Part shown: in pieces, positions 6,551 through 14,353 of the stretch
Layout: each line of letters begins with the position of its first letter
Numbering within the stretch: position 1 is the first letter of the stretch
Assembly: GCA_031423015.1 (NCBI GenBank)
Contig: JANPER010000046.1
Location: 12,647-76,646, forward strand
Source: Planctomycetota bacterium
GTDB lineage: Bacteria > Planctomycetota > UBA1135 > UBA2386
Length of the DNA: 64,000 nucleotides
Direction: 5' to 3'
Translations under genes and position numbers: made by a program
The notes under the pieces: generated by a model
What the model saw: only the letters and a program-made list of their open reading frames with translations
Told to the model about the DNA's origin: nothing
The model's database searches: none

Positions 6551-6612
6551 CAATTGGCTGCTTTCCAAGGTCACCGCCGAAATCCGCGGCCGCTCGACCT
6601 CACTTGCGGCGC
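6551..6612. repeat. right copy of the ~65-bp direct repeat flanking the toxin-antitoxin cassette
   Basis: see 5747..5820; overlaps the 3' end of the gene at 6600..9008. Confidence 0.6.
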
Positions 6613-9008
6613 GGCGGAGTACTGGCAGGCGGCTTCGGCTTGGCGGGTGGCTTCGGCTTGCGCGCGAGCTGCACGCGCACGTCGACCGGCTGCGGCGCAA
6701 AGGCGTCGACGCCACGCACGACCTGCACATGCGTATTGGGGCCGCGCACGCGCAGCTCGAAGCGCGACAACGCCAGGCCGTCCCACCCCCAGGTCCCACG
6801 CTCCGCCGCCGCCTCGCTCGGCGCGAGCGCCGCGGCCGCGGTGATTCCCTGCGTGTCGACCAACTCGACGCGCACCAGACCCGCGCGAAACGGCTTCCCG
6901 CGCTCGTCGACCACCCGCAGGCGCAGCGATGCGGCCCGTTGCAAGGTCACTTGGTGCAGATCGCGCACCTGACCCGACAACACGATCACCCCGGGCATGG
7001 CGAGCGGTTGATAGCCGCGCGCCTGCAAGCGCAGGTCGACCCGGCCGGCCGGGATGCCGCGCAAGCTGTAGCTGCCGTCGGCGTAGCTCACGCGACGGCC
7101 GTCGACCCCGGCGAACTGCACACCGGCGACTGCTTGGCGGGTGCTCGGGTCGATGACCTCGAGCGCGATGATGCCAGTGCCGGCGGGCATCATCGCCTCG
7201 ACGGGCACGCGCAGCAGGTTGCGCTGCGGGATGCGCACCCGTTGTGGAGTCTGCTGCACGACGTCGGGACCGCGCACGTCGACCAGGTAGTCACCCTCGG
7301 TCAGCTCGGCGATCGAGAAGCGCCCGAGATCGTCGGTCATCGCCCCGGCGTTCTGTCCCTTGCCAGCGACCTCGCGCACCGAGACCCGCGCTGCCCCTTG
7401 TCCCACGTCGGCGCCGCGCGCCACCACGACACCTTCGAGGACGAAGGCGCGCGCCAAGCGCAGCTCGCCCGCGTCGGTCTCGGGGCGATCGTCGGCCACC
7501 TTGACGTCGATACCGGCAGGAGCGTGGTCGGCGGCGCGCGCCTCGACGCGATACTGGAAGGCGGCGACCTCGTCGAAGCGGAACGTGCCATCGGCTGACG
7601 TCAGCACCATGCGCGCGAATCGTTCCGCGCCGAGCTTGGGGACGAGGTTCACCTCGGCGCCCGCGAGCGGGGTGCCCAGCGCCGATCGCACGCGACCGCG
7701 CACGGCGACGCCGCGCTTCATCTCGATCTCGATCCCTTCGCGCACCTCGCCGGCAGCGACCTTGCCCAGCAGCGTGCCGCCCGGGCCACGACCAGGCTTG
7801 CTCGCGACCAGCAAAAGCCCGTCGCGCGGCGCCACCTGGATCTCGAAGCGACCCTGCGCGTCAGTGGGGACTGCGTTGAGGAAGTGCAGGCCGTTGTCGC
7901 CAAAGCCCAAGGTGACCTCGGCGTCGCCCACCGGCTGGTGCGCCGCGTCCACCACGACCCCGCGCACGATCGCGGCACGAATGAGCGCCAACTCCACGTG
8001 CACGTCGCCGTCGGATGACACCACCTCCTGCTCGTGCGCGCGCGCGGCGTGCGTGCTGGTGTCAGCGCGCACTCGAATGCGGCCCGGTGCGACGCCTGAG
8101 AACACGAACCGCCCCGCCGCGTCGGTGCGCATTCTCTGCTCATGGTCGAAGCCATACACGCCACCGCCGCGCGAGTCCCAACGCAGGCGCACGTCGGCGG
8201 CCGCGATGGGCTGCAGCATCGCAGCGTCGCGGACGGTGCCGGACACCGTCGTGCCCTTGGCCATGGTGAACGCGTGCACGTTGTCCCCGGGCGCCAAGAA
8301 CAAACCCGCCACCATGCTGGCACGCACCAAGCCGGTGCTCGCCTCGGAGGTCAGCGCGACGTCGTAGGTTCCCGAACGGATCTCGTCGAGCACGACCGAT
8401 CCCTCCATGCCGGTGACGGCATCGACCCGCGTCCGCCCGCGGACTGCTACGCGCACCCCGGCCACCTTGGCGCCGCCGGCATCCTGCACGCTGGCCAAGA
8501 GCCGCGCCGCGCGCACCATGGCAATGGTGGCCGCCGAACCGAACGGATGATCGACGCGACCTGTCGGCAGATGGCCCGGCGCGCGGGCCCGCAGACTCAT
8601 TGTGGCGGCCTCTGGCAAGCGGACGGTCGCCTTGCCGAACGCATCCGTCGTGCGACGATCGGTGGCACCGGCGGCGGTCGCCTCCACCACCGCTCCCGGC
8701 AGGGCAACGCCCTGCGCATCGAGCACCAGGACCTCACCCGCGTTCAGGCGGGCGCGACCGTCGTCTTCGGCGAACGCCTCGTGGCGCGTGAACGGCGCGT
8801 CGGGCGCCTCGCCGGTCAGCGTCGCGCCCTCGGCATGTGCAGCGTCATCCGCAGCGACTAGCTCCGCCGCGGCGGCATCACCTTCAACTTGCCCACTCGC
8901 GGTGGCCAATGCGCCGCCACCAGTCGGCGTCAACACGAACCAAGCTGCCACGGCAGCTACGGTGCACAGAGCGGCAACGACCAGGCCGCGCGTGCACGAC
9001 ACCCTCAC
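6600..9008 (-). CDS. membrane-anchored protein built of tandem carboxypeptidase-regulatory-like (CarbopepD_reg) beta-sandwich repeats
   Basis: 802-aa ORF; N-terminal TM/signal anchor MRVSCTRGLVVAALCTVAAVAAWFV; many ~80-aa repeats containing G-x-V-x-D/G motifs typical of CarbopepD_reg-like domains; C-terminal KPKPPAKPKPPASTPPRRK tail; ATG overlaps the stop of the upstream sigma gene (ATGA). Confidence 0.65.
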   Translation of the reverse strand: MRVSCTRGLVVAALCTVAAVAAWFVLTPTGGGALATASGQVEGDAAAAELVAADDAAHAEGATLTGEAPDAPFTRHEAFAEDDGRARLNAGEVLVLDAQGVALPGAVVEATAAGATDRRTTDAFGKATVRLPEAATMSLRARAPGHLPTGRVDHPFGSAATIAMVRAARLLASVQDAGGAKVAGVRVAVRGRTRVDAVTGMEGSVVLDEIRSGTYDVALTSEASTGLVRASMVAGLFLAPGDNVHAFTMAKGTTVSGTVRDAAMLQPIAAADVRLRWDSRGGGVYGFDHEQRMRTDAAGRFVFSGVAPGRIRVRADTSTHAARAHEQEVVSSDGDVHVELALIRAAIVRGVVVDAAHQPVGDAEVTLGFGDNGLHFLNAVPTDAQGRFEIQVAPRDGLLLVASKPGRGPGGTLLGKVAAGEVREGIEIEMKRGVAVRGRVRSALGTPLAGAEVNLVPKLGAERFARMVLTSADGTFRFDEVAAFQYRVEARAADHAPAGIDVKVADDRPETDAGELRLARAFVLEGVVVARGADVGQGAARVSVREVAGKGQNAGAMTDDLGRFSIAELTEGDYLVDVRGPDVVQQTPQRVRIPQRNLLRVPVEAMMPAGTGIIALEVIDPSTRQAVAGVQFAGVDGRRVSYADGSYSLRGIPAGRVDLRLQARGYQPLAMPGVIVLSGQVRDLHQVTLQRAASLRLRVVDERGKPFRAGLVRVELVDTQGITAAAALAPSEAAAERGTWGWDGLALSRFELRVRGPNTHVQVVRGVDAFAPQPVDVRVQLARKPKPPAKPKPPASTPPRRK

Positions 9009-9610
9009 GGCGTACCCTCCAGGAGCGCGGCGAGGCGGGCCAGCGCACGACTCAACTGCACGCGCACGGCACCGTCGCTTTGGCCAGTTTGTTCGGCGAT
9101 CTCGGCCGAACTCAGCCCGACGACACGCGACAAGAGCACCACCTCACGGTAGGTCTCGGGCAACGCATCGATGGCGGTCTCGATCCGTGTGACACCCTCG
9201 CGCGCCACCAATTCCTGGGTCGGCGACAGCATGGTGCCGTAGGCATGCCCCAAGGCGGCATCGCCCGCGGTGCCTTGCACCTCGCGGCGCACGTCGCGCT
9301 TGCCGGCGATCAGCACGTTCTTGTGGTTGCGGATCTTGTTGAGGGCAAGCGCGAACAGCCAGTTGCGGAACGAGCCCTCGTTGCGCCATTCGAACTGGCC
9401 GAGGCTCTGCAGCGCCTGCCGGCACGCAGTCTGCACCAGGTCAGAATCCGCCTCGCGCGCGCGCAGCACCTGATCGGAGCGCAGCCGCACGAACGCCCGC
9501 AGCACCGGCAAGTAGCGGCGAATCAACGCATCGGCGGCGCCCCCGTCGCCGTCTTGCGCCGCGGCGACGAGCTGCTGGGTCGGGGCCTCGACCGGGGATT
9601 CGCGCGTCAT
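9005..9610 (-). CDS. ECF-family RNA polymerase sigma factor
   Basis: 201-aa ORF; region 2 (ALIRRYLPVLRAFVRLR, DLVQTACRQALQSLGQFEWRNEGSFRNWLFALALN) and region 4 (LPETYREVVLLSRVVGLSSAEIAEQTGQSDGAVRVQLSRALARL). Confidence 0.8.
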   Translation of the reverse strand: MTRESPVEAPTQQLVAAAQDGDGGAADALIRRYLPVLRAFVRLRSDQVLRAREADSDLVQTACRQALQSLGQFEWRNEGSFRNWLFALALNKIRNHKNVLIAGKRDVRREVQGTAGDAALGHAYGTMLSPTQELVAREGVTRIETAIDALPETYREVVLLSRVVGLSSAEIAEQTGQSDGAVRVQLSRALARLAALLEGTP

Positions 9611-9615
9611 GGGCT

Positions 9616-9664
9616 CGGAACTGTAACAACGAGGGCCGCGCGCGAATCACTCTGTGTGGTCTAG
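9616..9664 (+). promoter_or_regulatory. conserved 49-nt promoter-region block CGGAACTGTAACAACGAGGGCCGCGCGCGAATCACTCTGTGTGGTCTAG (candidate ECF-type -35 GGAAC)
   Basis: perfectly identical in both duplicate copies (9616..9664 and 11425..11473) although the adjacent coding sequence has diverged ~8 % and suffered a deletion; lies upstream of plus-strand genes 9786 and 11540. Confidence 0.35.
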
Positions 9665-9785
9665 GCCGGGGCAAACCATTGGTGCCGGTTCTGTTACAGT
9701 GCTGTCACCCGCGATTCCAACCCTTCGAGTTGCACGAGAAGACAGTGCCTCGAGGCAGCATCTCTTAACAGCACGGAGCATTGTC

Positions 9786-11006
9786 ATGTCGCCCTGGCAT
9801 CACCTCGTCGTAGGTTTCGGAGTGGTCGCGACCGCCGCCGCGCAGCGCACTTGGATCGTCGATGCTGCCAATGGGCCGGGAACCCATTTCACCGACATCC
9901 CGCCGGCGGTGGCCGCAGCGGTCGATGGCGACACCCTGCTGGTGCGCTCCGGCACCTACACCCCGTTCACGACCAACAAGGGGATCGCTGTGCTCGGGAC
10001 GCCCTCCGCGCTGGTGCAGACGCCGTCGTTCTTCCCCGGGATCATGGTGTCTGGGCTGCCAGCGGGCGCCGTGTTTCGCGCGCGTGGGCTGGTGCTCGGC
10101 GGCACGATCTCGCAGACGATGTCGCTGAACAGCAACGAGGGTGCCGTGCATTTGGAAGCGATCGAGTCGGCGGGTGGGCCGTTCCCACAGCCCAACGCCG
10201 CGATCGGCATAAGCTCGAGTCGGTTGGTGACCATCGTCGATTGCGGGCAACGATCGATTCTCGCCGTCAACGTTGCCAGCTCGCGCGTCAGCATCGTCCA
10301 TAGTCAGCTGCGCGGTCGATCGGCATTCAGCGATCCCCGCGCTGGCTCGTGGCCGGCCACGTCCGCACTCAGCATGGCGAGTGGCAGTGTGGTCGATGTC
10401 GCCGACTGCACCCTGCTCGGCGGCCGGGGTGCCTCGATTTGGCCGCACGTGGGCACCTACTGGTCGAGCGCGCCGGCGATCAACCTCAGCAACCTGTTTG
10501 GCGATCCGACCCTGCGGTTGCGTGCGGGAACCGTCGGCTCCGCGAGTTCTGGAATCGGGATCAACCCGGCAACGCCGATGTCGGCCATCGCGGGCATCGG
10601 CGTGGCGCAGGTCGACAGCCGCGTGGCCCTCGCCTCGTACGCCGGCGCGCCCCTGATAGACCCGGGTGTGCGGGCGACGATCGGTTTGGTGCCCGGCTTG
10701 AGCCTGGTCGGCGGCGGGTTGGGGAGCAATCTCGTGCTCACGCACCACGGGCAAGCCAATCAACCCTGTTTGGCGGGGCTCGGCGTGGTCGGCACGGTGC
10801 TGTCCTTCCCGTTTGGCGATCTGGTCCTCGACCTTGCCACCATGCAGACGCTCCCGCTCGTGTTCGCCGACGGCAGCGGCGTCGCAACCTGGACCGTGCC
10901 GCTGCCGAACAATCCCACGCTGGCTGGGGCAGCGTTCACCTGGCAGGTGGGCAGCGACGCAGGTGGACTGATGTTGTCGAATGCGGTGAGCGTGATCTTG
11001 CGCTGA
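9786..11006 (+). CDS. secreted protein, predicted right-handed parallel beta-helix (pectate-lyase-like fold)
   Basis: internal ATG of ORF 9654..11006 giving signal-like MSPWHHLVVGFGVVATAAAQ; GDTLLVRSGTYTP motif and Gly/Ser/Val-rich repeats; sits between the two copies of the duplication. Confidence 0.5.
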   Translation: MSPWHHLVVGFGVVATAAAQRTWIVDAANGPGTHFTDIPPAVAAAVDGDTLLVRSGTYTPFTTNKGIAVLGTPSALVQTPSFFPGIMVSGLPAGAVFRARGLVLGGTISQTMSLNSNEGAVHLEAIESAGGPFPQPNAAIGISSSRLVTIVDCGQRSILAVNVASSRVSIVHSQLRGRSAFSDPRAGSWPATSALSMASGSVVDVADCTLLGGRGASIWPHVGTYWSSAPAINLSNLFGDPTLRLRAGTVGSASSGIGINPATPMSAIAGIGVAQVDSRVALASYAGAPLIDPGVRATIGLVPGLSLVGGGLGSNLVLTHHGQANQPCLAGLGVVGTVLSFPFGDLVLDLATMQTLPLVFADGSGVATWTVPLPNNPTLAGAAFTWQVGSDAGGLMLSNAVSVILR

Positions 11007-11096
11007 CGCGCTGGCCACCGGCGCTGTCGACGCTAGCCGAAGGGGCGCTCCATGAGGGGAAACATGCGTCGCGGGAGGGTAGGGAAGTTCGTGTCA

Positions 11097-11413
11097 CGAC
11101 CAGGCCGCGCGTGCACGCGGCACTCACGGCGTCCCCTCCGGCAGCGCGGCGAGGCGGGCCAGCGCCCGACTCAACTGCACGCGCACGGCACGGTCGGTTT
11201 GGCCGGTCTGCTCGGCGATCTCGACCGAACTCAGCCCGACGACACGCGACAAGAGCACCACTTCACGGTAGGTCTCTGGCAACGCATCGATGACGACATC
11301 GATCCGTGTGACACCCTCACGCGCCACCAATTCCTGCATCGGCGGCACCCCCGTCGCCGTCTTGCGCCGCGGCGACGAGCTGCTGGGTCGGGGCCTCGAC
11401 CGGAGATTCTCGC
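11097..11413 (-). pseudogene. degraded duplicate of the 9005..9610 sigma gene plus the first ~30 nt of its downstream gene
   Basis: ~92 % identical to 8976..9223 then jumps to the equivalent of 9527; start region reads MMRESPVEAPTQQLVAAAQDGDGGAADAGIGGA-stop, remainder (MPPMQELVAREGVTRIDVVIDALPETYREVVLLSRVVGLSS...) in another frame. Confidence 0.7.
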
Positions 11414-11424
11414 ATCATGGCGCC

Positions 11425-11473
11425 CGGAACTGTAACAACGAGGGCCGCGCGCGAATCACTCTGTGTGGTCTAG
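11425..11473 (+). promoter_or_regulatory. second copy of the conserved promoter-region block, 67 nt upstream of the kinase ORF
   Basis: identical 49-mer to 9616..9664. Confidence 0.35.
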
Positions 11474-11539
11474 CAGCCGGGGCAAACCATGGTGCCGGTG
11501 CCATCGTCGCCGCCCTGACCCCGAGCCGCGCCGCGGCTT

Positions 11540-14353
11540 GTGGCACAATGGCCCTCTCGCGTTCCTGCCATGACTCGCTCCTACTCGCCGCCTCCCGAAG
11601 CTGACGCCCTCGGGCCCCTGGACCGGGTCGAAGAACTGCTCGGGGAGTGTCTCGCCGAACCGCAAGCGCAGTGGCCCGCGGCGATCGAGCGCCTGTGCGA
11701 CCGGCATCCAACCGAAGCCCTGGCCCTGCGCCGGCGCTTCGCGGCACTGCAGCGCGCCGGCTTGATGCACGAGCCGGGCAGCCAAGCGAGCGACCTGGCT
11801 CTGGTGCGCGCGTTGGCGCAAGACCAGCCGGAGATCGCCGCCGCGCTGGCCGACGCGGCCGGAGTCGACCGATCGTCGGTGCACGGCCTGCCGACGCCAA
11901 CCGACGCACGGCTCGGTACCACGCTGAGCAAACGCTACCGGCTCGTCGCGCGCATCGGCGCGGGCGCGATGGGCGTGGTCTATCGCAGCCACGACGAAGA
12001 GCTGCGCCGCGAGGTCGCCGTCAAGCTGCTCGACGCCGGCCAAGTCGTCGACCCCAAGGCGGAAGCGCGCTTCCTGCAAGAAGCCGAGCTGCTCGCGGGC
12101 CTGCGCCACGACGCGATCGTGACCCTGCACGACCGCGGACGCAGCGAGCGCGGCGAGTTGTTCTTGGTGATGGAACTGCTCGATGGCGTGCCGCTCACCC
12201 GCGTGCTGCAGGCCATCGACGGCGTGTCGACTGCGGGTCACTTGGCGGCGGTGCGAGAAGTGCTCGCGGCTCGTGAAGCGGGCCAAGACGCGCCACCGGC
12301 CGGGAACGGCAAGGCGTTGCCCGAGTCGAGCGTGGTGCGCCTGATCGCGCGCTGGGGCGCCGAACTCGCCGAGGGCCTCGCGGTGGCCCACGCGGCCGGT
12401 GTTCTGCACCGCGACATCAAGCCGTCGAACGTGTTCGTGCGGCGCGACGGCCGCGCGGTGTTGCTCGACTTTGGCATTGCCACGCGAGGTGGCGACCTCA
12501 CGGCGGCTGGCACCGTGCTCGGCACGCCGTGGTACATGGCGCCCGAGCAGGCCACCGCGCAGGGCAAGCTGACACCGGCGCTCGACGTGTACGGGTTGTC
12601 GTCGTGCCTCTATCACCTGTTGTCTGGTCGCCCGCCGTTCGAGGGTGATCCGCTGGCGGTGTTGGCGCGCATCGCCAGGGACGACCCGCCGCGGTTGTCG
12701 GCGGTCAAGCCCGACCTGGCGCGCGACCTGCGAGCCATCGTCGAGACCGGCATGGCGCGCGCGCCGCGCGATCGCTACGCCAGCATGGTTGCGTTGGCTA
12801 GCGATCTGCGCGCGTTCCTCGAACACCGCCCGATCACTGCGCGACCGCTGTCGAGCGTGGGACGGCTGTGGCGAAGCGCCAAGCGTCGGCCAGCCCGCGC
12901 CGCCCTGATCGCTGCCGCCTTGGTGATCGCGACGCTCTCGCTCGGGCTCCAGGCCGCCCGCGCGCGTGAGGCTGCGCGCAGCAAGGTGGCGCGCAAGACC
13001 GAACTCATGGCGCGCTTGCCGGAGACTCTGGCGTTCGAAGGCCTGCCTGAGCAACGGCTGCTCGCCAGCGTGCGGCCGGAGCACACGGGGTTCCTGGCTG
13101 AACTCGACGAGATCGTCGCGCTCGACCCTGACGACCTGCCGCCGCTGCTGTGGCGGGCGGCGCTGCGCCTCGATGAGGGTCAACACGAAGCCGCGGCCCA
13201 AGACCTGGCGCACGCCGCGCAACGCGCGCCGACGCCCTACTTGGCCGCGGTCGCCGCGCGCTATCAACGCGCGGCGCGCGACCGCCGGGGCACCGAGTCG
13301 ATCGACCTCGCGAACATCGACGCCACGCCGAACACGCCCGCAGATTGCTTCGTCGCCGGCTTCCATGAGCTGCGCAACCGCCACATCGAGGGCTTTGCCA
13401 AGCGGGCCGACGAGCTGCTCACGCGCGCCGCCGAAGCGTACCCCCCGGCGCGCGACCTGCGCCTCGTGGCCTTGGTGGCACGGGGCGACTACGAGGATCC
13501 GCTGTACTTCATCACCGCGGTCAACGAGTCGCTGCGGCTCGAAGGCGTATACGGGCGAGGCACGGCGCGCACGTATGCGCTGCGTGGCGCGGCGCTCGCC
13601 GCCATGGGGCGCAACAAGGAGGCGTTGGCGCCGTTGCAGAAGGCGCTCGAAATGCGGCCCGGCCGCCACTCGCCGCTGCAGAACCTCGCCGTGGTGCATC
13701 GCGCGCTCGGCAACACTGAGCTAGCCAAGAAGTACATCGACGCGGCCTACGCGGCGCGACCGTACTTCTGGAACACGACGTTCCTGCGCGCGCAGATCAT
13801 GTCGGATGCTGGCGAGTTCGCTGCCGCTTGTGAGCTGGTCGCAGGCATCGACGAGAGCGATGCGCCCGACCTCGCATGGCGCAAGCCGTACCTGCTGGCC
13901 ACCATCGGCACCGAAGAGGTGGCCACGCTCTACCGTCGCGGCGCCACCGCGGCCGAACGCGAGGCCGTTGCCGCGCGCGCGTTCACCCACCTGGACACCG
14001 TCTGCGCACACCCGAGCGCGCCGGATGGCTACAAGCAACGCGCGGCCAATCGCCGCGCCATCATCCAGGCGCTCCTGCACCACGACGACGAGGGCGCCAG
14101 CATCCGTTTCCTTCGGCAGCTGACCGAGGTCCCAAACGATGCCGCGGCGCTGCGCAACCTCGCGGCCTTGTTGCCCGAGCGCAACCTGTCGGAACGCGCG
14201 ATCGCCCACCTGCGGCTGTTCCTGGCAACCTTGGCGCACCTGAGCGCCGTGCAGGACAACCGGCAACAGCTGGTGCGCGACGATGCGCGCAAGCGCGTCA
14301 ATCAACTCGAATCCACCGATACCTCAACCTCCACCGAAAGCAGAATCAAATGA
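11540..14353 (+). CDS. serine/threonine protein kinase with C-terminal TPR-repeat region
   Basis: 937-aa ORF (alternative ATG at 11570); kinase subdomains GAGAMGVVYRS, AVKLL, HRDIKPSNVFV, DFGIA, GTPWYMAPE; C-terminal half with TPR-like helical repeats. Confidence 0.8.
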   Translation: MAQWPSRVPAMTRSYSPPPEADALGPLDRVEELLGECLAEPQAQWPAAIERLCDRHPTEALALRRRFAALQRAGLMHEPGSQASDLALVRALAQDQPEIAAALADAAGVDRSSVHGLPTPTDARLGTTLSKRYRLVARIGAGAMGVVYRSHDEELRREVAVKLLDAGQVVDPKAEARFLQEAELLAGLRHDAIVTLHDRGRSERGELFLVMELLDGVPLTRVLQAIDGVSTAGHLAAVREVLAAREAGQDAPPAGNGKALPESSVVRLIARWGAELAEGLAVAHAAGVLHRDIKPSNVFVRRDGRAVLLDFGIATRGGDLTAAGTVLGTPWYMAPEQATAQGKLTPALDVYGLSSCLYHLLSGRPPFEGDPLAVLARIARDDPPRLSAVKPDLARDLRAIVETGMARAPRDRYASMVALASDLRAFLEHRPITARPLSSVGRLWRSAKRRPARAALIAAALVIATLSLGLQAARAREAARSKVARKTELMARLPETLAFEGLPEQRLLASVRPEHTGFLAELDEIVALDPDDLPPLLWRAALRLDEGQHEAAAQDLAHAAQRAPTPYLAAVAARYQRAARDRRGTESIDLANIDATPNTPADCFVAGFHELRNRHIEGFAKRADELLTRAAEAYPPARDLRLVALVARGDYEDPLYFITAVNESLRLEGVYGRGTARTYALRGAALAAMGRNKEALAPLQKALEMRPGRHSPLQNLAVVHRALGNTELAKKYIDAAYAARPYFWNTTFLRAQIMSDAGEFAAACELVAGIDESDAPDLAWRKPYLLATIGTEEVATLYRRGATAAEREAVAARAFTHLDTVCAHPSAPDGYKQRAANRRAIIQALLHHDDEGASIRFLRQLTEVPNDAAALRNLAALLPERNLSERAIAHLRLFLATLAHLSAVQDNRQQLVRDDARKRVNQLESTDTSTSTESRIK

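Follow-up and report, generated by a model that had tools for sequence, protein, structure and literature searches.

The question raised by this locus is why 49 nt of non-coding DNA are identical in two copies of a sigma factor gene region of which one still encodes the factor and the other has decayed. The initial annotation of the window, by which we mean the whole 64,000-nt stretch of DNA analysed, had suggested that a duplication carried a promoter to two new operons and that selection has kept it perfect there. We put forward a different answer: the locus is probably an ordinary pseudogene remnant of a lineage-specific duplicative insertion, a degree of confidence that covers the whole explanation, duplicative insertion and promoter reading jointly. 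The duplicated region and its gene content are as follows.

8977..9691: repeat copy 1, 715 bp, from pairwise alignment (repeat families D1-D3)
11096..11501: repeat copy 2, 406 bp, from pairwise alignment and an independent contig
9005..9610, minus strand: intact ECF sigma gene, 201 aa (Pfam Sigma70_r2, Sigma70_r4_2 and Sigma70_ECF, PF07638)
11124..11418, minus strand: sigma pseudogene with a 311-bp deletion, junction 11335/11336
6600..9008, minus strand: gene 3' of sigma, 802-aa protein (Pfam PF13620 in 7 stretches, E 1e-59)

Pairwise alignment confirms a segmental duplication of the ECF sigma gene with its upstream region: the copies are collinear, in direct orientation and about 93% identical, 374 of 404 aligned columns being without difference and the rest comprising 27 substitutions and 3 indels. 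Specifically, 219 of 240 positions (91.2%) are identical between 8977-9216 and 11096-11335, 81 of 85 between 9528-9612 and 11336-11420, and 51 of 52 between 9613-9664 and 11422-11473, beyond which the homology extends to 9691/11501 with two small indels. Each copy starts with the initial 32 nt of the 802-aa gene (8977-9008 matching 11096-11127); in copy 1 these are followed by the intact sigma gene with 81 nt of upstream DNA, and in copy 2 by what is left of the dead sigma gene, again with its upstream DNA. The loss in copy 2 is out of frame, as annotated, since 311 mod 3 is 2, while its size is 311 bp (copy-1 positions 9217-9527) and not about 303 bp. The reported coding difference of about 8% is borne out, with 21 of 295 positions (7.1%) in sigma coding DNA and 8.75% across 8977-9216, and so is the identity of the 49-mer, which matches exactly at 9616-9664 and 11425-11473, occurs exactly twice in the window with no further match there even at 3 mismatches, and gave 0 chance matches in 100 shuffles.

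The intact gene encodes a sigma factor with regions 2 and 4 only, which scores above the cut-offs of PF04542, PF08281 and PF07638 and of TIGR02937 (80 bits, cut-off 42.9); its best NCBIfam match, TIGR02984, reaches 121 bits, under the 184-bit cut-off. Orthologues are 71-99% identical, and a dN/dS of 0.04 against the nearest known strain (L055) indicates strong purifying selection. Region 2.2 reads DSDLVQTA, with both Asp residues of DxxD kept and a Thr, invariant in 7 orthologues, in place of Glu. That one copy had decayed was rightly recognised: copy 2 has the frameshifting deletion, which reduces the coding sequence to 36 N-terminal codons and, apart from these, a sigma-4 ORF of 74 aa, and its sigma-4 part carries E->D, A->V, G->R and L->P replacements at ortholog-invariant residues, a second A->V, at 9105, falling on a variable site. 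The copy-2 branch bears about 14 changes versus about 5 on the copy-1 branch, the latter nearly all synonymous. Judged from these alignments, copies 1 and 2 are each other's closest relatives and diverged after the split from L055; about 10 sites are shared-derived between them relative to L055 and outgroups.

Related loci place this duplication in an older gene order, for which the remaining large features are needed.

9692..11095, plus strand: inserted cassette, 1,404 bp, which no related locus has between its sigma and kinase genes
9786..11006, plus strand: gene for a putative secreted beta-helix protein, 406 aa (predicted signal peptide, right-handed beta-helix and C-terminal beta-sandwich)
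11570..14353, plus strand: Hanks-type Ser/Thr kinase with TPR repeats, 927 aa (Pfam Pkinase, E 7e-37, and TPR)

The sigma gene divergent from a Ser/Thr kinase gene, with a membrane protein gene 3' of sigma, is the ancestral order in 7 related Planctomycetota loci. Kinase orthologues, 58-69% identical, are divergent from sigma in all 7, as full TPR kinases of 905-922 aa in L050, L052, L054 and L141 and as partial orthologues in unchanged position in L057, L059 and L143. The 802-aa protein, which has an N-terminal membrane anchor and CarboxypepD_reg repeats and in which a Pfam search found no anti-sigma domain, is encoded by a gene whose start overlaps the sigma stop codon (GTGA); its orthologue lies immediately 3' of sigma in L057 (55% identity) and L059 (57%), and also after sigma in L056 (63%). 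The start of the kinase gene is ATG 11570 and not 11540 as first annotated, because the M-[ST]-R N-terminus that it yields is conserved among orthologues. Here, a 2,119-bp unit, made up of the 715-bp sigma region and the 1,404-bp cassette, parts the intact sigma gene from the kinase. Because the sigma/kinase order is ancestral in 7 related loci, it is the truncated sigma copy that occupies the original slot beside the kinase; indeed, copy 2 runs uninterrupted into the ancestral sigma-kinase spacer, and its 151-nt spacer holds both conserved promoter motifs described below with ortholog-like spacing. The duplication thus neither created the pair nor spread a promoter to two new operons, and the novelty is the cassette flanked by the repeat.

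The cassette consists of a 94-nt leader, the beta-helix gene and an 89-nt tail. None of the related loci examined has a beta-helix gene between sigma and kinase, homologues of the cassette sit elsewhere, and the window contains no second copy of the cassette flanks. The 406-aa protein has no match in Pfam or NCBIfam. Its AlphaFold model is all-beta (pLDDT 81), and the best PDB matches in Foldseek are tailspikes and beta-helix enzymes (polysaccharide lyases and a pectin methylesterase), which are weak matches (E about 7e-4) with TM values of 0.2-0.4 for the top ones.

What the 49-mer does can be read from its position relative to three short elements.

9616..9664, minus strand: 49-mer copy 1, the region that would hold the core promoter of the live sigma gene (exact match; ortholog alignments)
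11425..11473, minus strand: 49-mer copy 2, putative promoter region of the dead sigma gene, with TGTTACAGT at 11429-11437
9620..9628, minus strand: TGTTACAGT, resembling an extended -10 element, 9 nt upstream of the sigma ATG
11541..11549, plus strand: TGGCACAAT, likewise resembling an extended -10 element and belonging to the kinase, 20 nt upstream of its ATG

We infer that on the minus strand the 49-mer serves the sigma gene as its own core promoter, giving a leaderless or near-leaderless mRNA. Within it, a GC-rich spacer links an A/T-rich island that resembles a -35 (TGATTC) to TGTTACAGT, a 9-mer with 3 occurrences in the window versus 0.02 expected. The initial annotation was correct in that the block holds a genuine conserved regulatory element: its ortholog-invariant core, GTTACAGT on the minus strand, is carried without change upstream of sigma by both copies in the window and by 8 of the 10 related loci. 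These loci represent 5 of 7 distinct lineages, since L050 and L051 have one and the same sequence, as do L052 and L053, and L057 is nearly identical to L050. In L054 and L059 the motif has one or two bases changed (GTTACAGC, GTTACACC) and is 126-195 nt from the annotated sigma start. Of the 11 sequences compared, 8 have GTTACAGT 9-11 nt before the sigma ATG, and in L141 the distance is 18 nt. Since no Shine-Dalgarno sequence precedes the sigma ATG, the architecture would be of the leaderless type; the -10 and leaderless assignments are based on motif position and conservation, and a simple sigma-70 consensus scan of the region returned no match.

The two plus-strand genes appear to be served by elements of their own. 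The kinase would be transcribed from TGGCACAAT, which is outside the duplicated DNA, shows no variation in any of the 7 sequences that extend to this side (the window and 6 related loci), where it lies 12-22 nt from the kinase ATG, and, like GTTACAGT, fits TGnYACArT. The beta-helix gene, similarly, would be transcribed from a third TGTTACAGT at 9692-9700, the first bases of the cassette, which faces the gene and lies outside the 49-mer, with a 79-85-nt leader and a ribosome-binding site, GGAG, 9 nt before the ATG; beta-helix homologues elsewhere have the close-set arrangement of the sigma and kinase elements, with TAGGAT 8 nt before their ATG. These positions speak against the block as a plus-strand promoter for either gene, as had been suggested: on the minus strand its conserved core keeps a distance of 9-11 nt to the sigma ATG, but its distance to the kinase start ranges over 77-186 nt.

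Whether the identity of the block calls for selection in both copies depends on the null, that is, on whether average repeat divergence or synonymous sites only are taken for comparison. When the 30 differences are placed at random in the 404 columns, 47% of the permutations contain 49 or more identical nt in a row, and the longest identical run observed, 56 nt at 9540-9595, is in coding DNA. Coding and intergenic DNA do not differ significantly in density of differences (Fisher p = 0.19 for substitutions, 1.0 with indels), so that the per-region alignment lacks a significant contrast between a perfect promoter and decayed coding DNA, which had been taken to suggest selection. Against synonymous sites (12 differences at about 78), intergenic DNA (2/81, p = 0.0045) and the 49-mer (0/49, p = 0.003) are the more conserved, which is expected because this is the promoter of a live gene. 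On the copy-2 branch, the block has 0 changes in 49 positions versus 14 in 292 of dead coding DNA (Fisher p = 0.23), about 2.4 changes being expected in the dead-copy block and 0 seen, with P(0) = 0.09. The identity would thus need no special selection, purifying selection on the live copy and a short time in the dead one being enough. If copy 2 was functional for some time, the neutral rate on its branch would be nearer 0.1 per site, and under that rate its spacer, with at most 2 substitutions in 81 nt, evolved more slowly than neutral (P about 0.015), so that residual constraint or gene conversion may have acted on the copy-2 spacer.

In the history that we favour, duplicative insertion at a conserved planctomycete ECF-sigma/Ser-Thr-kinase locus would have left the sigma pseudogene. 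The rearrangement was probably one event, by template switching or by integration of a circle carrying a homologous segment. That the structure is instead an assembly artefact, in which strain variants were joined in tandem, comes to mind since the source is a contig of a metagenome-assembled genome, repeats of about 91% identity may mislead assemblers, and the independent Logan contig L134 (run SRR20217180) ends within both repeat copies. We regard this as extremely improbable. L134 is 100% identical to window positions 9635-11254 and crosses both novel junctions, 9691/9692 and 11095/11096, so that the structure is not the artefact of one assembly; copy 2 carries pseudogene-type changes; and the copies are not alleles because the left flank of copy 2 is the beta-helix 3' region and not the 802-aa gene. 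Gene conversion or a crossover during the rearrangement could have homogenised the promoter-proximal part (about 9528-9691), giving it a younger ancestor than the sigma-4 part. The left part has 21/240 substitutions and the right part 6/164 (Fisher p = 0.066), L055 differs at 4 positions of the 49-mer from both copies, which are identical, and a cluster at 9078-9092, ancestral in copy 2 and derived in copy 1 and L055, hints at a mosaic. We nevertheless consider homogenisation unlikely, as the gradient is non-significant, the supposedly homogenised part holds 3 indels and 2 substitutions, and the N-terminal coding part has a normal synonymous density (3 of about 20 sites).

The block could also be a plus-strand ECF promoter for this sigma factor, with copy 1 driving the beta-helix gene, copy 2 the kinase and selection maintaining the identity. 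Here ACTGTAAC would supply TGTAAC as the -35 'AAC' and an A/T island 15-17 nt downstream the -10. ECF -35 elements do look like this, an example being B. subtilis sigma-X with TGTAAC-N17-CGAC. The A/T island is at that distance in all related loci, the motif is locus-specific, intergenic DNA is conserved above synonymous sites, zero differences are, by our own estimate, about 5-37 times likelier if the copy-2 block was constrained as it is between strains, and autoregulation is common among ECFs (PMC7826278). Several points make such a promoter distinctly unlikely, however. The would-be -10 varies (AATC, AACTG, GTTCT, CTAAC, GTTTTC) and is without a CGT core; the spacing to the sigma ATG is constant but that to the kinase start is not; the kinase is preceded by an invariant proximal element of its own; the order of sigma and kinase predates the duplication; the third copy of the motif is turned towards the beta-helix gene in sigma-type and not ECF-type orientation; and the copy-2 branch test is non-significant. 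Nor does the block look like the sigma factor's own target when read towards sigma, as ortholog alignment upstream of sigma reveals no ECF-type AAC/CGT pair, for which a spacing of 16-17 nt is expected, in that direction, where only GTTACAGT is conserved, and the -35 region varies (TGATTC, TTGATT, TCAGTT, CAGAAC, GTTAGT, GAAAAC) though sigma region 4 is nearly invariant. Because GTTACAGT is locus-specific and not a general promoter word, with no other occurrence in about 125 kb (the window and related planctomycete loci), a dedicated regulator or sigma factor would also fit. We hold it to be improbable that GTTACAGT is the recognition element of such a factor (either this ECF sigma, under control of the kinase, or a regulator specific to the locus) with a small leaderless-type regulon and not a housekeeping -10. 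If it were, the rearrangement would have wired the secreted beta-helix gene into the sigma/kinase circuit via the third element copy, and the dead copy's intact promoter would fire antisense into the beta-helix gene.

Under the favoured reading, a sigma promoter duplicated with its gene, the elements resemble extended -10 (TGnTATAAT-type) leaderless promoters: TGTTACAGT and TGGCACAAT fit TGn plus TAnnnT-like hexamers and lie 9-22 nt before start codons that have no Shine-Dalgarno sequence. They differ in that their hexamers match the E. coli consensus at 4 of 6 positions and that, unlike general extended -10 elements, the exact 8-mer is restricted to this sigma locus. With autoregulated ECF promoters the locus shares a conserved motif that is directly upstream of an ECF gene and reads TGTAAC on the complementary strand.

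The sigma/kinase pair itself is comparable to ECF43 (EcfP/PknT of Vibrio parahaemolyticus and EcfK/PknS of Xanthomonas citri) and to the kinase-linked groups of planctomycetes, ECF59-62, in which an ECF gene likewise lies beside that of a Hanks-type kinase, the sigma factor has regions 2 and 4 only and no recognisable anti-sigma domain is encoded nearby. Two features of kinase-associated ECFs are seen here, kinase co-occurrence in 7 related loci and the lack of a co-encoded anti-sigma factor. In ECF43, the DxxDxxQE motif of region 2.2 loses acidic residues and has a conserved phospho-acceptor Thr, with a QTTA consensus (PMC13147305). The sigma factor described here has a Thr at an acidic position of DxxDxxQE, a position class that is phosphorylated in ECF43 (PMC13147305, PMC7826278), and phosphorylation is here putative; unlike in ECF43, both Asp residues of DxxD are kept. 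The pair also departs from ECF43 and ECF59-62 in that the genes are divergent and not co-oriented and the kinase has TPR repeats. As a rearrangement, the locus resembles bacterial pseudogene remnants of segmental or tandem duplication, with direct repeats of about 93% identity, one frameshifted and the other under purifying selection. It differs from the usual remnants in that the repeats flank an unrelated 1.4-kb gene cassette (A-B-A) and that the ancestral neighbour has stayed with the dead copy and not with the live one.

The segmental duplication of a sigma gene with its upstream DNA, proposed in the initial annotation, is borne out by pairwise alignment: one segment is present in the window as two collinear direct copies, copy 1 (8977-9691, with an intact ECF sigma gene) and copy 2 (11096-11501, with a sigma remnant), at an overall identity of about 93%. 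Positions 8977-9216 and 11096-11335 are identical at 219 of 240 sites, 311 bp of copy 1 (9217-9527) are absent from copy 2, and 9528-9612 matches 11336-11420 at 81 of 85 sites. From there to the ends of the repeat at 9691 and 11501 follow, in order, a substitution beside a 1-nt indel, a non-coding block of 49 nt that is identical in both copies (the 49-mer), a 2-nt indel, 14 identical nt, a 1-nt indel and a substitution. The 49-mer is found in the window at two sites alone, 9616-9664 and 11425-11473, with up to three mismatches permitted. The copies are not alleles, because copy 2 is flanked on its left by the 3' end of the beta-helix gene that lies between them, and a Logan contig from an independent assembly (L134, run SRR20217180) is 100% identical to window 9635-11254 and spans both of the junctions that are absent from related loci (9691/9692 and 11095/11096). 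The observation in the initial annotation is therefore confirmed, including the deletion and decay of one copy, with the size of the deletion corrected from ~303 to 311 bp, and its interpretation is supported in part alone.

Genes of the locus.
6600-9008, minus strand: 802-aa protein with a membrane anchor and seven CarboxypepD_reg repeats, overlapping the sigma stop codon
9005-9610, minus strand: ECF sigma factor of 201 aa (PF04542, PF08281, PF07638)
9786-11006, plus strand: 406-aa protein without a family match (beta-helix gene)
11570-14353, plus strand: Hanks-type Ser/Thr kinase with TPR repeats

The kinase had been assigned a GTG start at 11540, which falls within a conserved kinase-side motif (TGGCACAAT), and a conserved M-[ST]-R N-terminus places the true start at ATG 11570. 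The description of the 406-aa product as a secreted beta-helix protein is consistent with its signal peptide and with a predicted all-beta model (pLDDT 81) whose best structural matches, all of them weak, are right-handed beta-helix tailspikes, polysaccharide lyases and pectin methylesterases. An Rfam scan of 8500-12000 (E<=1) gave no known RNA and one chance viral match (18.6 bits against a gathering score of 70 bits). For the sigma protein, an exact-sequence look-up returned no record, a scan of the genome collection returned relatives of <=35% identity save for short 46-49% matches limited to the sigma-4 end, and a metagenome scan yielded one useful orthologue (in the related planctomycete locus L059), the remainder being distant ECFs.

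Relatives of the sigma protein at 71-99% identity all come from metagenomes or Planctomycetota MAGs. In seven related loci (L050, L052, L054, L057, L059, L141 and L143) sigma and an orthologous TPR kinase (58-69% identity) are divergently transcribed; across related loci the spacer between the two is 95-388 nt, and none of the seven has a beta-helix gene in it. An orthologue of the 802-aa protein lies directly after sigma in L057 and L059. The gene at this position varies among related loci, being a second Ser/Thr kinase in L141 (5684-7932) and, in L050 (8603-8863), an 86-aa ORF that overlaps the sigma stop and replaces the 802-aa gene. This synteny gives the ancestral order as the 802-aa gene and sigma on one strand, then the spacer, then the kinase on the other. 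Copy 2 thus holds the ancestral slot beside the kinase, with a continuous, ortholog-like spacer of 151 nt, and the intact copy 1 retains the ancestral link with the 802-aa gene. The novelty in the window is a cassette of 1,404 bp (9692-11095) flanked by the 715-bp repeat, and homologues of its beta-helix protein (67-68% identity, L135-L140) occur in another neighbourhood without sigma or kinase. G+C content over the sigma gene, cassette and remnant (window 9100-11300) is 0.64-0.69, slightly below that of the flanking genes (0.70-0.73).

We propose that repeat and cassette together (2,119 bp, A-B) were inserted to give the A-B-A arrangement, for which a single duplicative insertion would be the simplest account; template switching, or single-crossover integration of a circle bearing a homologous segment, would be candidate mechanisms. 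A tandem-duplication route would require an additional deletion, one that recreated the spacer of the ancestral locus exactly. The feature is unremarkable as genome rearrangements go: a duplicative insertion after which the kinase, ancestral partner of the sigma gene, was left with an ECF sigma pseudogene as its neighbour. That the duplication spread a promoter to new operons, which would have meant natural regulon growth via promoter copying, is contradicted by the ancestral order of sigma and kinase and by the position of copy 2 in the ancestral slot.

In copy 2 the first 27 sigma codons are intact and are followed by a frameshift and a stop after 36 codons, and the sigma-4 part persists solely as a separate ORF of 74 aa. 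In the codon alignment of related loci, the two copies share the derived state at about 10 sites relative to the nearest known strain (L055, 99% identical) and outgroups; hence the copies are sisters, and L055 had already split off when the event took place. About 5 changes, nearly all synonymous, fall on the copy-1 branch, and about 14 in 292 nt on the copy-2 branch, the latter including E to D, A to V, G to R and L to P at residues invariant across orthologues. By the Nei-Gojobori method, dS is 0.173 and dN 0.044 between the copies (ratio 0.25), and 0.228 and 0.009 between copy 1 and L055 over the full gene (ratio 0.04). Copy 2 is a pseudogene, and copy 1 is subject to normal purifying selection. 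In annotation, gene calls should exclude the sigma pseudogene, and the start of the kinase should be corrected to 11570. Four clustered differences at window 9078-9092, where the dead copy is ancestral at all four and copy 1 shares the derived state with L055 at two, may reflect a short tract of mosaic origin or gene conversion, or else homoplasy.

The initial annotation suggested that selection had kept the promoter perfect while the coding copy decayed. When the 30 observed differences are placed at random in the 404 columns, 47% of trials contain an unbroken identity of 49 nt or more, and the longest identical run, of 56 nt (9540-9595), lies within coding DNA. The density of differences does not differ significantly between coding and intergenic parts (p = 0.19 with substitutions only, 1.0 with indels), an outcome that the initial annotation had itself named as evidence against its reading. 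With synonymous sites taken as a better neutral yardstick than the average divergence of the repeat, the intergenic part is more conserved (2/81 vs 12/78, p = 0.0045), as is the 49-mer (0/49, p = 0.003), and the block is likewise more conserved between copy 1 and L055 (3/49 vs 31/158, p = 0.027); such conservation is what should be expected of the promoter of a live gene. On the copy-2 branch itself the 49 nt of the block have no change and the 292 nt of dead coding DNA have 14 (P(0) = 0.09, Fisher p = 0.23), a result that is non-significant even before allowing for the post hoc choice of the block, and maintenance of the dead copy's block by selection is not borne out. The identity of the block needs no selection on the dead copy, the block being a putative sigma promoter carried along with the sigma gene. 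Some residual constraint on the copy-2 spacer may nevertheless have acted, for example because it is still the upstream region of the kinase: if copy 2 was functional for a time, the neutral rate would be higher and the spacer slower than neutral (P about 0.015). Gene conversion between the copies is a marginal candidate for the source of the identity, the left and right halves of the repeat differing only marginally in substitution density (p = 0.066). The locus is a worked example that a perfect non-coding run in a ~93%-identical repeat is not, alone, evidence of selection.

Alignment of the sigma-kinase spacers of related loci shows two conserved islands, GTTACAGT and TGGCACAAT, within otherwise unalignable DNA. 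The 8-mer GTTACAGT, which lies within the 49-mer, occurs in exact form in the two window copies and in 8 of 10 related loci (L050, L051, L052, L053, L055, L056, L057 and L058), or 5 of 7 distinct lineages, with the variants GTTACAGC in L054 and GTTACACC in L059; L141 and L143, outside this set of 10, likewise carry it. It is always on the sigma strand. Of the 11 sequences compared, 8 have it 9-11 nt ahead of the sigma ATG; the distance is 18 nt in L141, and two loci whose starts are doubtful have 126-195 nt. In the sequences compared no Shine-Dalgarno sequence stands in between, and 16-17 nt upstream of the word is an A/T-rich island of variable sequence. TGGCACAAT, on the kinase strand, precedes the kinase ATG by 12-22 nt and does not vary among all seven sequences that cover that side (the window, L050, L052, L054, L057, L059 and L141); its window position, 11541-11549 (+), is 40 nt beyond the end of the duplicated DNA. 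TG..ACA.T is common to both words, and each fits an extended -10 element (TGn plus a TAnnnT-like element). Position and conservation lead us to interpret the 49-mer as the core promoter of the sigma gene itself, oriented along the minus strand, and to infer a separate predicted promoter for the kinase. The only copy-2-specific upstream changes, one substitution and a 1-nt insertion (9612-9615 / 11421-11424), both fall in the 9-nt spacer from the -10-like motif to the ATG, where a leaderless start would be.

The suggestion that the block is the sigma factor's own target promoter is not supported: as an autoregulated ECF promoter it fails the defining test, there being no AAC/CGT pair in the sigma direction and no conservation of the -35 region despite a near-invariant sigma region 4. 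On the opposite strand, TGTAAC could be an ECF -35 element facing the plus-strand genes; we regard this as a minority reading, since the -10 is unconserved, the distance to the kinase is variable (77-186 nt) and the kinase has a proximal element of its own. A dyad operator, CTGTnACAG, is less likely in view of its asymmetric conservation, ACAGT being fixed and the other arm varying, and a sigma-54 reading of TGGCAC in the kinase motif was rejected because the offset of the -12 GC is not constant across related loci. The degenerate TGNYACART is not enriched as a general promoter motif (5 matches vs 2.8 expected), and a fourth GTTACAG (50982) and TGTCACAGT (41726), neither in an evident upstream context, are taken as chance. 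A scan with the E. coli-type sigma-70 consensus gave no promoter match and a terminator scan one terminator-like site, at chance level.

The 9-mer form of the word, TGTTACAGT, occurs three times in the 64 kb against 0.02 expected. The third occurrence (9692-9700, +) forms the first 9 nt of the cassette, directly past the end of repeat homology. It is oriented towards the beta-helix gene, whose ATG follows 85 nt downstream, and pairs with the sigma-side copy (9620-9628, minus) as an inverted repeat of 9 bp with 63 nt between the arms. Because the 8-mer, in about 125 kb of window and related planctomycete loci, is confined to sites before sigma and the cassette start, the cassette gene seems to have been equipped with the promoter word of sigma, either through descent or because selection favoured co-expression. 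As an inverted, decayed copy of the sigma promoter and 5' coding region, the leader 9692-9790 is unconvincing (best P 0.03, uncorrected over 8 comparisons). The beta-helix homologues (L135-L140) have a conserved GTAGGATGTCGAGC(A/G)ATG 8-14 nt upstream of their starts, with TAGGAT 8 nt before the ATG, and hence a leaderless-type layout seems common in the clade. The window gene, unlike these homologues, has no proximal TAGGAT and instead an 85-nt leader with a GGAG ribosome-binding site, which suggests that it was re-wired after relocation. Its leader also holds a perfect 12-nt palindrome, TGCCTCGAGGCA (9746-9757, +), that could be a hairpin or an operator.

Planctomycetota promoters are poorly known. 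The promoter-like words GTTACAGT (sigma) and TGGCACAAT (kinase) mark a kinase-linked ECF locus in an uncultured Planctomycetota clade and provide concrete targets for transcription-start mapping; apart from this pair, we consider only the third copy of the motif, the one preceding the beta-helix gene, to be a lead worth experiment.

By function, we propose to group the sigma factor with the kinase-associated ECFs (ECF43 and the planctomycetal ECF59-62). These groups are without anti-sigma factors and are thought to be activated via Thr phosphorylation in region 2.2, as shown for EcfP and EcfK (PMC7826278; PMC13147305). Region 2.2 of the window sigma factor is DSDLVQTA (residues 55-62, window 9425-9448, minus strand), and its Thr, invariant in seven orthologues, stands where ECFs usually have Glu. 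It is residues of this position class that undergo phosphorylation in the kinase-linked ECF43 sigma factors.
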